A DNA stretch of 62,716 nucleotides, the filler included, from Stramenopiles sp. TOSAG23-6 (lineage: Eukaryota), in assembly GCA_900128565.1 (NCBI GenBank). It is 20 parts of 20 records of this genome, joined end to end, with 100 filler letters (N's around TTAATTAATTAA, not from the genome) between each part and the next. Parts side by side here need not be neighbours in the genome. Positions count along the whole stretch, not along the records: positions 31,475 to 34,514 come from LT637685.1; 19 more parts are not named here. The stretch is one strand, 5' to 3'. The notes beneath the pieces are model-generated. The model ran no database searches. It was given only the letters and a program-made list of their open reading frames with translations, and was not told the DNA's origin. The position numbers were made by a program, and so were the translations under genes. Positions 19,002 through 37,537 of this stretch are shown one piece after another. Numbering within the stretch: position 1 is the first letter of the stretch; every line of letters starts with the position of its first letter.

Positions 19002-19635
19002 CCAAAGTCTATAATTTTCCTTACATGTGATGCATTTGGTGTACTACCACCTGTTGCTAAATTATCAAATGGACAAGCTATGTATGTTTTTTTTTTCAAT
19101 TTCGAATTTTGTTTTCGTATGAAAATTTGTACCTAACAAATTTAAGTTTTTTTTTTGTATCTACTACAAGAAAAATTGGAGAAACATGATTCGAATGCTT
19201 ATCTAGTTAATACTGGATGGACAGGTGGTGCATATGGTGTCGGGGAGCGAATGTTCGTTTCCATGATACATTTCGAATATATATATTTTTTTTTTTTTAT
19301 AGTAAATTTTGTACCTAACAACTTTTTGTGTTTTTCGGTAAAAAAAAAATATTTTTTCACAATTTATGTCTATCAAAGAGACAAGAGCTTGTATTGATTC
19401 AATTCTTGATGGTTCAATTTCTAATTCGACTTTTGTAAATGATTCTATATTTGGTTTCCAAATCCCACAAGGTTTACCAGGCGTATCAGCTGATGTATGC
19501 AATCCTCGAAATGCATGGGATGATAAAAACTCATATGATGTTCAAGCTGCAAAATTGGCTGATATGTTTCGTGAAAATTTCAAAAAATATTCAGAACCTG
19601 GAGTCACTGATTATACTGAATTTGGACCAAAGTAA
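19002..19635 (+). CDS. PCK1: phosphoenolpyruvate carboxykinase (ATP), C-terminal exons
   Basis: [21 protein letters not shown]...[44 protein letters not shown]. Confidence 0.92.
19253..19367 (+). other. non-canonical GT-AT intron (family member)
   Basis: CGA AT|GTTCG...GTACCTAAC...CACAATTTAT|G TCT ATC restores conserved G-x-R-M-S-I. Confidence 0.85.
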
Positions 19636-20785: not shown

Positions 20786-21894
20786 TCATGACGTTGTAGA
20801 TGATTCTGCGCAAGGAAGTTTTGACATAAAAATTCCCTTATCTTTTCGTTTCTTTTCAGCTTCAAACACGATTGAATTCACATAAATATCATCAAAACTT
20901 TCTCCCAACATGAAGACATCATGTCCTGACGACTGATTTGTGATTGAAATAACTTGTCGTGGTTGTACTCTAATATACCCATTTGTTCTCATCATTTGAC
21001 ATGTATTTTGGAAAAGAAATTCAAAAAAAACTAAAAAAAATTGTTAGGTACAAAATTTACTATATTACTATAAAAAAAAAATTTCAAATTAAAAAAAAAA
21101 AAAACGTACATAATAAAAAAAAAAAAACGTACATAATAAATCACGTTTAGGTTCCTCCCATGCGTGTTCTATCATCCAGACTCCCACAGTATGACTATGG
21201 AAAGGAAATTTTTTCAGAATTTCAAATTCACTGCCCTCCGTATCTATTGAAATGAAATCAATAAAGAAAGGTATGTTCAAATTGTTCTGATCTAATATTG
21301 TATCTATTGTTTCTGTCATCATTTTCTTTTTTCTGCCGTTTGCTTGTCTATTGGCTTCTTCCCGACGAGTTTGCCTTGACATCAAGTTTTCTATACCTCC
21401 CAAAGCATTAGCCATTGTGAAGAGAACCTCTTTTTTTTTGTCTGCTAAAACAATATGAAGTAGCGTACAGTGACGCTTGTCAAAATTATGTGGGAATGGT
21501 TCAATACAAATTCCTTGCCAACCTAGTTGTTCAAATAGTAAAGAATTTGAAAGATGTTGTCCATCATTTGCACCAATGTCAATAAAGAAATGTTGTATTT
21601 GACTTTCTATTTGTTGTTTCATGAGTATATTACGTGCTTCAGAAATAGAAGGCAGCAAACTTAACACACAAGCATCTTGTCCTACTTGGCTATGAATTGT
21701 AAGAACGTAATCAGTACGAATGTCACTACCAGAATAAAAATATTCTTTTCGACATGTTTCTGCAGATGTACAGGTTTTATCGCGTTTATCTATATCTATC
21801 TTTACCAAGTCAATATACTCTTGAACTATATGTAATACGTCACGTTGACACTGTGCTGTCCAATCTACAGTGGTCCCAGGACTATTAATATAAC
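20786..21894 (-). CDS. FkbM-family methyltransferase, 5' partial, spliced
   Basis: SQVGQD, FFIDIGANDG..SNS, GWQGICIEP, IDFISIDTEGSEFEIL; the last exon joins via intron 21001-21132. Confidence 0.85.
21001..21132 (-). other. non-canonical GT-AT intron with tandemly duplicated donor
   Basis: TTA T|GTACG...CCAAAATACAT|GT CAA ATG gives LLCQMMRTNGY; TTATTATGTACGTTT is repeated about 23 nt inside. Confidence 0.8.
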
Positions 21895-22047
21895 ATGTAT
21901 TTTGGAAAAATATTTCAAAAAAAAAAACTAAAATTTGTTAGGTACAANNNNNNNNNNNNNNNNNNNNNNNNNNNNNNNNNNNNNNNNNNNNTTAATTAAT
22001 TAANNNNNNNNNNNNNNNNNNNNNNNNNNNNNNNNNNNNNNNNNNNN

Positions 22048-31527: not shown

Positions 31528-32279
31528 GTGCTAGTGGTATTGGGTCTGGGACGTCATCCCGTCGCGATTGTAATATGTTAAGTTCTATCATTGATCATCA
31601 GTTTGCACATGCAATATCCTCTGAAAATTTGACTAGTCAAACTACTGTAATGACACTACTGCCTTATATGTTTGCTGCAGCCTTTACAAGCGATGGTTGG
31701 AAAGGTGCAGTATATATGCCTCAAATTGAAGCAATGGCGAATAGTGCACATGTCACATTGAAGACAATCATTCAGGTATGTGGCGCAATGGCATTCAATG
31801 CTACTAAACAAGGTAATACTGTAAAGGAATCTCCACCTGGGACATCAATGGACGAAACATTACGAAATGAATTAAAACATAATTTAAATACTTTTATGAA
31901 ATGTGGTTCTGGTGTAATTCTTGCAATGAAGTGTGAAGAAACAGAGGCTGGGGGTTCAGCATATATAAGTTATCCTATTCGTGCCATGTTTGAAATGATG
32001 CATAAATTTCCCGACATGTGTGGAAATATTTGTGAGCATTCTGAATTGGAAATGTATTTACCGAACGCACTTGCTTCTTCAGCTAATGTAGATATCGTCT
32101 TAGGTCGCCAAAGATCAGTCGATAAACCTGATCCTAATGCCCTTGCTGGACTTATTTCGAATGCGAGATGTCGCACAACATCATCAGGATTAGAACGGGC
32201 TCGGAAGACTTCTTCGGCATCAACAAATCAAAGAAATTCACTGAAAGAAATACAGACGAATAATAAATCTAGAAATTAG
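31528..32279 (+). CDS. NCKAP1: Nck-associated protein 1 (NAP1/HEM, WAVE complex), last exon
   Basis: LLPYMFAAAF..W...Y.P.IE..AN.AH....I...LNTFM...S..IL...LEMYLP resembles the NCKAP1 C-terminus. Confidence 0.65.
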
Positions 32280-32365
32280 TGTACACAATTGACTACGTAG
32301 TGTTTTTACAGACGAATAATAAATCTAGAAATTAGTGTACATAATTGACTACGTAGTGTTTTTAC
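32251..32365. repeat. 56-bp tandem duplication spanning the stop codon and 3' UTR
   Basis: TACAGACGAATAATAAATCTAGAAATTAGTGTACA(C/T)AATTGACTACGTAGTGTTTT occurs twice. Confidence 0.85.
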
Positions 32366-33269: not shown

Positions 33270-34449
33270 CTATGACAACTGACTCTTCAATATTTTGTAG
33301 ATAGCAGCACCTGCAACTTGACTTGAACTTCTCACAGTAAGTTGAAACGCATTCGCTTCAGGATTTTTTACAATGCGCAGGAGTGTTCCATATTGTGTTG
33401 ATTTACTATTTTTACCCATCTTCATCGTTTGTAGAATTCCAACACAAGTCATAGATAATGATGGATCAACGTCAATGTCCTCCACGATAGCAAATTTCAT
33501 CACACGTGTTTTATCATCACCATCTTTATAACAAATCAATTTTCGTATTTTGTCTAAATCGTTACAATTAGGTCCTATAGGGATTTGTCCTTCCGTTTGC
33601 TTCTCTTCACTTCCCAAAGATTTCCAAAGATGAGTGAATCTAGGCTTTGATAACTTAGATGTACCGACGAAATTCGTAAGAACAACAGGTAAGCGAAGAG
33701 GAAGCGTATATCGAATTCCATTGGCTACGAATTGAAGTGTAATACCTGGTGGCATTTCAAAAGGAGCATGTATTTTGGGAAAATATATATATATATTTAC
33801 CGAAATTTGTTAGGTACGAAATTTTCTATTAAATTTTTTTTTNAAATGTAGGTAAAACATTCAATTTTTGAAACGTACATAGCAAATCCATTTAATAATT
33901 TGCTTTTGTTGTTGACCAATACTGATATTTGATGGAACATCACCAACCTGAAACTTTAAAGCATTGTCTGATCCTTTCATATCCATTTTGACAGAAAATT
34001 CAACAAGATCTGAATTTGATTGGTTTCCATAGAATAATTGCATTCGTCCTTGTGCTCCTCGATATTCATGTAAGAGCCCAATTTGTATATTTTTATCTTG
34101 ATATAAAACAGAGCGAGACATGACAACTAGATTCTTGAACCAAGATAATAATTTTGGAGATAGTTCATTGGGTATACCACGTTCTTCAATTACTTTTGTT
34201 TCTGCAATATCGAGAAGATCATGTATTTTGGAAAAATATTTCAAAAAAAATTCGTTAGGTACAAAACTTCGTACGAAAAAAAATCGAATTTGAAAAAAAA
34301 AAAAAATACATCATTAGCACTCTTACCGCTAACCTCATCTCCACTATCTTCTTCATTACTATCATCTTCTCCGGACACATTATTTTGCTTAATACCAAGG
34401 ATACGGTGACTTTCTTTTCGTCTCAACTCTGAGGTTTCTCGATCAATCC
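33270..34449 (-). CDS. AP2A: AP-2 complex alpha subunit, hinge and appendage exons
   Basis: DLLD hinge motif, VLYQDKNIQIG...LFYGN, LRLPVVLTNF, F..LWKSL, LLRI..NP....LTVRS. Confidence 0.85.
33768..33878 (-). other. GT-AT intron (family member)
   Basis: TGC TAT|GTACG...CCCAAAATACAT|GCT CCT TTT gives ICYAPFEMPP. Confidence 0.85.
34221..34309 (-). other. GT-AT intron (family member)
   Basis: AAT GAT|GTATT...CCAAAATACAT|GAT CTT CTC gives SANDDLLD. Confidence 0.8.
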
Positions 34450-34614
34450 ATGCATTTAGGAAAAATATTTCAAAAAAAAAAAACTAAAATTTGTTAGGTA
34501 CAAAATTTCGTACGNNNNNNNNNNNNNNNNNNNNNNNNNNNNNNNNNNNNNNNNNNNNTTAATTAATTAANNNNNNNNNNNNNNNNNNNNNNNNNNNNNN
34601 NNNNNNNNNNNNNN

Positions 34615-36175: not shown

Positions 36176-37537
36176 ATGTCTGCGTCTATTGAAGCAACAA
36201 TGGGAATTGGTATTCGTTCTATAGTAGAATCTAAAACGTTTCACGCAATGTGCATGAATTTTGCGACATTATACGGCGCTTTGTTTACAATGAGTTTATT
36301 TTTGATCAACCCTTCAAAATTGACGTCCTCAAAGTCAAAGTCAACGTCTCGCTGGTTACCTCCATGTAGTTCATTCGGCAATGCAAAACGCGCCACAGAG
36401 ATATGGTTTCTTGGATACGGTTGTATTTGGATTACAGTTTTTGCATGTATAATTGGTGGAGGAATGTATAATTGGTTTGATTCTGAACACTACCTGATTG
36501 TTTGTATCGGTTTAGCTGCACCGCTGTTACTTCAGCCATTTATTTTCCCAGCTCTTACCAGTGAAGCCGATGTACCTCTCATTGAACGATATTCTTTTAA
36601 AGCAAATGTATGGATTGCTATATTTAGTTTTATTGGAAATTATTGGTATACTCATTACTTTTATAGTGTTCTAAAAGCAACCTATACATTTCCATCTCTA
36701 GATTTGAATGGTGTTCCCATCCCAATGTTTTTCGCAACCCATTTTTACTTTTCATTTTATCATACACTATCAAATTTGATATTACGTAAAATTGATACGA
36801 CATATGAAGCTGGAATTTGTCGTTTTTTATTTAGTATTGTTTTGATCATGGTAATGAGTTATACAACAGCATTTATGGAAACTTTGACAATTGCTGGATT
36901 TCCTTGTACGTTTTTGTTCACAAACCCTAACCCTAACATTTTTTTTCAAAAAAAAAATTCATAGGAAATTTTGTACCTAACAAAATAGTTTTACTTTTTT
37001 GAAATATTTTTTTAAAAAATATGTTATCAGTTTGAAGACTTTCATCAAGCATGTACTATTGGTTCTGCATTTTATGGTATTTATTTTCTTGTTAGTTTTC
37101 CAATGTTTCGAAGAATTGATGAAATTCATGTATGTTTTTTTTTGTTACTATGAAAATTGTGTACCTAACAAAATTTTTTTTTTTTTTTTTTTTGAATTTT
37201 TTTTTTGAATTTTTTTTTTGAATTTTTTTTTGATTTTTTAGAATGAATTTTTTTTTTTGGTAATCAATTCTGTACCTAACAAATTTCAAACTGTACTCCT
37301 ATTTTTTACAATACAACATATAAATGAAATTTGGATGATGACAGGTTTGTCCTCTACACCGAAGCAAAACACTGATAAAACGTGTATACAAAAAAATTCT
37401 TCATCTACCACACAATGGAAAGTACCATCGAATCTAAAATCAACAAAATCACGAAATCAAGAAATAAATTCACCTACAATAATTCAATGTAAATTCAGTG
37501 TATTTCAAGTGATTATGGAAGCTTTAGCTACGGGAAT
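36176..37537 (+). CDS. CPI1: cycloeucalenol cycloisomerase (cyclopropyl sterol isomerase), 3' partial
   Basis: RYSFKANVWIAIFSFIGNYWYTHYFY, GVPIPMFFATHFYF, TAFMET...FPCYQF...GSAFYGIYFLVSFPMF.RIDE. Confidence 0.9.
36906..37022 (+). other. GT-AT intron (family member)
   Basis: CCT T|GTACG...GTACCTAAC...AAAAATAT|GT TAT CAG TTT gives FPCYQF, matching the CPI1 FPYYEF region. Confidence 0.85.

Follow-up and report, generated by a model that had tools for sequence, protein, structure and literature searches.

A high-copy family of GT-AT introns and a complementary U1 snRNA in the genome of Stramenopiles sp. TOSAG23-6

The genome of Stramenopiles sp. TOSAG23-6 (GCA_900128565.1) contains a high-copy family of introns of about 100 nt which begin with GT and mostly end with AT, and the 5' end of the only U1 snRNA found in the assembly is the exact complement of CAT|GTACGTTT, the family donor together with the exonic bases before it. 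These introns are probably non-autonomous mobile elements which insert with a 2-bp duplication and are removed by a U2-type spliceosome with a matching, altered U1. A wider reading is more tentative: one mobile element may have supplied essentially all introns of this genome, with the major spliceosome re-tuned to it and the acceptor chosen by distance from a motif, with no requirement for AG. The assembly is incomplete (21.1 Mb in 6,236 contigs). The window analyzed here is a stretch of 62,716 nt, in which contigs of ~3.1 kb are strung together with N spacers. Sequencing runs containing DNA of this genome originate from seawater samples, and the organism is regarded here as a marine protist.

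Both introns flagged in the earlier note on the minus strand are present, and Pfam places them in an AP-2 alpha-adaptin gene (Table 1). Each follows an exonic AT, starts with GT, includes the box TACCTAAC, and ends with AAAATACAT. The exons flanking them are whole-codon pieces of the Alpha_adaptinC2 and Alpha_adaptin_C domains; an adaptin exon used as a query returned no homologue. In the 89-nt intron, the 5' junction ATGTATTTT and the intron end are reverse complements of each other without a mismatch (9/9), and in the 111-nt intron 5 of the 6 outer bases are complementary between the ends. The junction ATGTA(T/C)GTTTT quoted in the earlier note is a motif of the family, although neither adaptin intron has exactly these letters. 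Interior palindromes (TTTCGTACGAAA; GAAATATTT..C) are seen in the 89-nt intron and in other family introns, and the antisense of the branch box reads TTAG-GTAC. Elsewhere in the window, a Nckap1-like gene contains a tandem duplication of ~50 nt spanning its stop codon (32248-32347), and telomere-like CCCTAA repeats occur as internal sequence near 36920 and 49873 and in several introns.

Table 1. Features of the family introns and neighbouring exons, in positions of the window.
Feature	Positions	Strand	Basis
AP-2 alpha-adaptin last exon, Alpha_adaptin_C, stop at end	33270..33767	-	PF02296 E=3e-9; open frame
Family intron, 111 nt, GT...AT; putatively spliced	33768..33878	-	Frame between two adaptin domains survives removal
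3' end AAAATACAT of the 111-nt intron; final AT (33769-33768) is a copy of the exon end	33768..33776	-	
Branch-site-like box TACCTAAC in the 111-nt intron	33809..33816	-	CTAAC core suggests a branch-point role
5' junction of the 111-nt intron, 3 exon and 8 intron bases, including exonic AT 33880-33879	33871..33881	-	Complementary to the U1 5' end of this genome
Adaptin middle exon, Alpha_adaptinC2	33879..34220	-	PF02883 E=2e-9
Family intron, 89 nt, GT...AT; putatively spliced	34221..34309	-	Ends complementary over 9 nt, exonic AT included
Branch-site-like box TACCTAAC in the 89-nt intron	34254..34261	-	Sequence
Adaptin upstream exon, AT at its end	34310..34449	-	Sequence, open frame
Third family intron, 3' part, cut by the contig end; GCAT at its end	34450..34514	-	
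PEPCK family intron, 115 nt	19253..19367	+	RNA joint in runs X5, X7, and X11; Pfam for the gene
Family intron, 132 nt	21001..21132	-	Skipped in one RNA contig (run X7, record 26)
Family intron, 3' part	21895..21945	-	Three RNA contigs match the exon to 21894, then stop

A strict branch-plus-end pattern has at least 1,685 matches genome-wide, some of them on contigs that are duplicates or fold-backs, and 0 in the reversed control. Loose branch boxes number 64 in 150 kb of blindly chosen contigs, which scales up to ~9,000. The family is not an amplification artefact, because in an independent seawater DNA run the summed contig depth reached 22,000-62,000 over the elements (strongest bins), compared with 1-5 over exons. 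The survey DNA comprised 852 kb, namely the window and 80 stretches, many of which were selected for containing matches, and yielded 388 distinct branch-box hits. From these, 174 copies with clear, unambiguous ends and no adjacent box, N, or edge were retained. Donors were scored on intron bases only, with a bias to GT and with exon bases unscored, and the scoring of acceptors left out the last two intron bases.

When a copy is removed along with one flanking AT, the resulting sense frame is open in 171 of the 174 copies. In an earlier set of 111 copies, 107 frames were open after exact removal, 45 and 48 when one base more or less was removed, and 41 on the antisense strand. The 171 copies consist of 139 GT-AT, 6 GT-AG, 5 GC-AT, 4 GT-TT, 4 GT-GT, 3 AT-AT, and 10 others. 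GT donors (160/171) were favoured by the donor scoring. Acceptors are AT in 148 and AG in 6 copies, so that the AG acceptor of U2-type introns is the exception in this family. Similarity of at least 0.9 to a copy at another locus was seen for 44/171, while run-shuffled controls did not exceed 0.61. Clustering, as the earlier note had proposed, therefore confirms a high-copy copied intron family, and the resemblance is not limited to short splice signals but is end-to-end near-identity across unrelated genes. By its many highly similar introns in unrelated genes and by exact splicing, seen in the RNA joints of two copies and in the frames, this family counts as an introner. Tandem copies, in which ACAT is followed by GTATG and which would make a recursive splice site, were observed at L074:+2550, L043 (minus, offset ~4932), and L028 (minus, offset ~331).

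Old introns homogenised by selection on long splice signals in a drifted spliceosome, with no mobility, could also resemble each other. Diverged family copies do exist in which only the donor, branch, and end are retained (orphans), and the U1 matches all of them; yet the near-identity just described, the heritable subfamily ends, and the absence of introns from a close paralogue argue against this explanation. The intron phases (64/34/32) likewise fit those expected for insertion at AT sites (44/27/30%). An origin by selection alone is highly improbable.

PolyA metatranscriptome contigs precisely skip two family members, the PEPCK intron and the 132-nt intron; this RNA evidence comes from assembled contigs with a depth of 2-8 rather than from raw reads. 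The PEPCK joint comes from three runs of two studies, the shorter flank measuring 33, 47, and 92 bases, and was not seen in the DNA run X4. It slides over four bases (AT..TT, TG..TA, GT..AT, TT..TG, and TC..GT), and none of these readings is GT-AG, GC-AG, or AT-AC. In the same gene, an apparent mis-assembly between two element copies lies at 19082-19158, where an RNA contig (X11 record 1) has 124 extra bases. A YAG between the branch and the intron end is found in 29/171 copies; the 132-nt intron is one such copy, and in its RNA an internal TAG 13 nt past the branch A is bypassed. The distance from the branch A to the intron end is 31-47 nt in 168/171 copies. Since three RNA contigs stop at 21894, the acceptor of the family intron at 21895..21945 lies directly after ACAT.

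The register of the splice sites can be slid in many copies: 99 of the 171 can be read as AT-AC and 7 as GT/GC-AG, and 65 have no canonical reading. A true register two bases upstream would make these AT-AC introns of U12 or hybrid type, and the fixed extended branch box would suit such introns. The RNA-proven PEPCK intron is nevertheless among the 65 copies, and the shift to AT-AC introduces stops in two copies. In an XPC-like gene, it turns a Val that is aligned with an Ile of human XPC into Asp. The end of the RNA contigs at 21894 also contradicts the shift. Donor words of U12-type introns are ATATCCTT/GTATCCTT; the family donor differs from them, and U1 pairs with it in the GT register. 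U6atac gave no match, and the control was equally silent. Genome-wide, 102 family copies have a YAG end at the same position, which fixes the register. The AT-AC register is thus largely refuted and hardly credible; the family register is GT...AT, and the clean GT...AT excision proposed in the earlier note agrees with the two RNA joints and the restored frames.

The U1 snRNA starts with AAACGUACAUGG, in place of the standard AUACUUACCUGG, with three changes, U2>A, U5>G, and C9>A. Its Rfam match (54.1 bits, E 7.5e-12) is below the cut-off of 69.5 and extends over the full model length, with the stems and the Sm site present. The changes face the donor positions -1 (T in 159/171), +4 (T in 122 and C in 47; G pairs with both), and +7 (T in 168), with C9>A facing the exonic base at -1. 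Over the 171 donors, the mean number of pairs of 11 is 10.25 with this U1 and 7.41 with the standard U1. The mean duplex energies are -9.4 and -1.9 kcal/mol, respectively, and this U1 is the stronger in 170/171. The main point overlooked in the earlier note is that the altered U1 is exactly complementary to the 5' arm of its inverted repeat, counted with the exonic AT. The altered U1 would thus read the family donors in the cell. Because the recognition sequence of U1 has changed to match the introns, the complementarity suggests that the mobile element and the splicing machinery have adapted to each other.

A standard U1 did not turn up in the assembly (a 12-mer search gave 6 hits, versus 7 in the control, none of them U1 by Rfam); one may exist outside the incomplete assembly. 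Among 80 metagenome U2 loci, 10 adjoin U1-like starts, and all are standard under a pattern variable only at positions 3, 5, and 9. The U5, U2, U1, and U4 genes recognized with Rfam are tightly clustered, and U6 is elsewhere. They lie head to tail (L088:9-645; G000:C1146, also C6122) with their Rfam matches only 2, 23, and 5 nt apart, possibly as one polycistronic transcript, the spacing being too small for separate promoters. The U1-bearing cluster is identical on two contigs, which diverge just past it, and a family intron is found on one of them. The U2 GUAGUA, U5 loop 1, and U6 ACAGAGA are all standard. The GT donor pairs with U1 and with the U6 ACAGAGA (computed pairing), and the branch is of the CTAAC type, as in U2-type introns.

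Prp8 is unchanged over the residues that correspond to human 1184-1861, among them the functionally relevant Q1522 region, and its gene (L091, G000:C84) is intronless in the part covered, with no family introns. The best named matches of Prp8 and of a U2AF large-subunit-like protein are mostly from stramenopiles. Like its counterparts in other stramenopiles, the latter contains two RRM1-like domains; it lacks the usual Trp motif, which is likewise absent in stramenopile relatives; the covered part of its gene (L243, G000:C433) contains no family introns. A U2AF small subunit, the protein that reads the AG, was not seen among 9/12 CCCH contigs of the incomplete assembly. Standard donor words occur about as often as expected (AGGTAAG 60 vs 46, GGTAAGT 48 vs 45, GGTGAGT 44 vs 48), and few of them precede AT-rich sequence, while family-type donors number 254. 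The actin-family loci examined after splitting contain family introns or contig breaks. Most introns of the genome appear to belong to this family. One candidate ordinary intron was observed at L020:+8179, with an AG-GTAAGT donor, a TACTAAC box, and a later CAG.

The inverted repeat at the intron ends reported in the earlier note does exist, although it is short and shows no compensatory changes. With the AT left off it reads GTAT...ATAC (4 bp), extended by T/A runs past a bulged G, and all six outer positions are complementary in 68/171 copies. Pairing of the ends in RNA, as in euglenid introns, could bring the splice sites together, and the 89-nt adaptin intron is indeed predicted to fold with paired ends (probability ~0.99), as one of 36/171 copies with a probability above 0.5. 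The median probability is nevertheless 0.012, and no covariation was found at the pairing positions. C at +4, present in 47 copies, breaks the inverted repeat, and the opposing A is kept in 46 of these 47. Copies with TT/TT and GT/GT retain the direct repeat yet break the pairing. The mean duplex energy of the donor with the 3' end of its own intron is -3.6 kcal/mol, and in 170/171 copies the computed pairing of the donor is stronger with U1 than with the 3' end. Juxtaposition of splice sites by end pairing, the alternative offered in the earlier note, is thus very unlikely, and an obligatory pairing of the RNA ends is unlikely; a transient role in acceptor choice is possible. The inverted repeat may be a relic of a transposon. 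The intron 3' end resembles the U1 5' end because it is complementary to the donor, and no evidence was found for a use of this resemblance.

The direct repeat is a sharp duplication of 2 nt. The exon end and the intron end are identical at -1 in 156/171 copies (146.3 in shuffled pairings) and at -2 in 145/171 (125.2; both p=0.0002), an excess anticipated in the earlier note, and at -3 to -6 there is no excess. At -2, exonic A faces intronic A in 133/134 copies, exonic G (n=19) faces G in 7 and A in 12, and exonic T (n=17) faces T in 5 and A in 12. Variants of the last two intron bases away from AT copy the exon base in 17/27 cases, versus 1.8 expected, while variants at -3 to -5 do so in 16/58, versus 15 expected. 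Of the repeat of 2-4 nt described earlier, therefore, the 2-nt part holds and the cases of 3-4 nt are chance. The junctions comprise 124 AT/AT, 10 other duplicates, 24 x/AT, and 13 others. Besides AT/AT, the TT/TT match listed in the earlier note is genuine, as is GT/GT (4 copies each), but its CCAT/CCAT reflects a subfamily trait, with CCAT at the exon end in 1/7 copies ending in CCAT. The fixed length of 2 nt is as in MITE/DDE elements, and the 37/171 unduplicated copies are older on average.

Since 24/171 copies end in AT without an exonic AT, duplication is not the whole story. The proposal that a target-site duplication supplies the non-AG acceptor is supported by the 2-nt covariation and the excision at AT, but does not by itself account for these copies. 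Their divergence exceeds that of AT/AT copies (median 0.71 vs 0.79, p=1.5e-4), as expected if mismatches come with age, although some are near the consensus. Later drift, or selection favouring A at -2, would agree with this greater divergence. At third codon positions, x/AT copies are not significantly enriched (10/42 vs 14/106, p=0.14), and in the XPC-like x/AT copy a Val codon is required at the exon end. Two causes could lie behind the exonic AT, a duplication of the target and pairing with U1.

Enrichment at AT targets, also suggested earlier, is seen in an approximately palindromic C-AT-G context, with C before AT in 53/130 (16% expected) and G after it in 70/130 (24%); U1 pairing and the usual exonic G could also produce this context. 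A paralogue on another contig lacks three adjacent introns of its sister gene; two of the three empty sites carry a single AT, and the third differs at a silent position. A gain in the sister gene and a loss through a retrocopy could be read equally from this pair. A TA-type duplication was rejected by the same empty-site comparison.

The introner/MITE origin proposed in the earlier note gains from the copied family, the 2-nt duplication, the single-AT empty sites, the palindromic C-AT-G context, and the excision, but is weakened by the 4-bp terminal repeat, the missing partner, and the few copies outside sense frames. The intergenic or antisense copies it called for are almost absent: only 3/174 copies fail the sense-frame test, in which decayed intergenic copies could be missed, and such a number is unexpected for random DNA insertion. 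Nor did a PF13358 family search of the genome reveal a transposase with matching ends. Two intact IS630/Tc1-mariner-type DDE frames of 432 and 446 aa were found (L251:796-2094 and L252:757-2097), with no clear TIRs or shared ends, and no autonomous element was seen among 29 orphan 5' motifs read by eye. The family pattern had 0 matches in viral contigs and 0 in JGI metagenome contigs, where no relative with the family was found.

The near-absence of non-coding copies and the lack of a detected partner enzyme therefore leave room for a route through RNA. The family would then have spread by reverse splicing or RNA-templated break repair, with the exonic AT as a filter set by U1 pairing, and junction repeats would reflect microhomology during end joining or the staggered core of a recombinase-type reaction, not a DDE transposase. 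A hexamer strand classifier gave 252 sense, 25 antisense, and 36 non-coding calls among 313 (random ~40/39/21%), consistent with sense-only, coding-only placement; it is noisy and miscalled one RNA-proven intron. U1 accounts for the positions -3, -2, and -1, and all four junction classes are present. In the XPC/Rad4-like gene (L056 minus, offset 8897), the intron opens with the same 9 bases as the downstream exon, no duplication is present at its 3' side, and a weak trend to 5'-side duplication exists (12/32 vs 7.9 expected, p=0.07). Pure reverse splicing, however, predicts no covariation between the exon and intron ends, which is strong and confined to 2 nt, and introners with TSDs and TIRs are likewise enriched in genes, according to the accessible text of PMC9860276. 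Spread through RNA is a serious contender, but rather unlikely.

In the preferred explanation, DNA-level insertion of a mobile element, the introns would be copies of one non-autonomous element of ~85-135 nt with the core GTAY...ATAC, which duplicates 2 bp on insertion and mostly enters at AT in the C-AT-G context. The element would supply the donor GT, the putative branch box, and the fixed 3' motif, and the duplicated dinucleotide would become the last two intron bases, so that excision by the major (U2-type) spliceosome restores the mRNA exactly. The altered U1 would read the element start and the AT target together. Counted from the branch A, the acceptor probably lies at 31-47 nt, two bases past the terminal motif TTTT-YCA-NAA-TAC, and would not be the first YAG. 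Insertions in a sense frame after (C)AT would survive through good U1 reading and exact excision. Either the element or the U1 change may have come first.

Few features of eukaryotic gene expression are as conserved as the AG acceptor and the U1 5' end. AT-ended introns spliced past nearer YAGs, with a matched U1, provide a natural test of 3' splice site choice, and the same genome a natural test of whether intron-making elements drive spliceosome evolution. Should one element indeed have re-tuned the spliceosome, the result would amount to a natural GT-AT spliceosome, and a transposon would have driven change in a core snRNA. GT-AG gene finders will mis-model these genes, and surveys accepting only AG or AC acceptors would miss the family.

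Separate precedents exist in the consulted parts of the literature for AT acceptors from duplicated targets (Fritillaria) and for U1 compensation (Entamoeba and Mastigamoeba), and their combination was not found described there. Neither a GT-AT intron family with an altered U1 nor an exon-facing U1 change appears in these parts, and the supplementary family tables of PMC9860276 and PMC12130899 could list the family. The accessible portions of PMC5778133 and bioRxiv 10.64898/2026.04.17.719054 contain nothing on splice sites.

Introners are described from Micromonas (IE1), Chrysochromulina, Symbiodinium, and Aureococcus (PMC9860276, PMC11282704, PMC12130899). As far as the accessible text of these sources goes, the present family resembles them as high-copy similar introns in unrelated genes that leave the mRNA length unchanged, and probably also in an element that brings the donor and co-opts the acceptor from the target duplication. 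It differs in the 2-nt duplication (3-9 bp are quoted for known families), in the AT or other non-AG acceptor, where a 2025 survey lists only AG and AC, and in a host U1 that matches the element. Introns of Amoebophrya and euglenids bear TIRs and TSDs and, as here, have unusual ends, in the available part of PMC11282704. Amoebophrya is apparently without U1, which is present here, and the introns of euglenids depend on the pairing of their ends and are released as circles, whereas the pairing here is uncompensated.

The introns of Fritillaria borealis and F. pellucida share the major spliceosome and a MITE-like origin, which is probable for the present family, and their YAY before the donor is repeated at the intron end (PMC13326754, accessible part). 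There, 3' AT is the commonest acceptor (44% and 34%), and the non-canonical splicing is credited to duplicated U2AF and m6A, with no diversification of the U1 5' end. Those animals have mostly AG donors and many classes, in contrast to the one family, the GT donors, and the altered U1 here. Co-evolved U1 is reported from Entamoeba (AACAAAC) and Mastigamoeba (ACGUAC), such compensation is called rare, and no U1 change was found for Micromonas, Thecamonas, or 69 yeasts in the accessible part of bioRxiv 10.1101/2022.06.08.495308. In both amoebae, as here, an altered U1 5' end matches a donor that is itself atypical; Mastigamoeba has the same ACGUAC core, and Entamoeba the same pairing at +7. Their changes face intron positions, as far as that text describes them, whereas C9>A faces the exon at -1, and in the present genome the donors come from a repeat family and the acceptor is non-AG.
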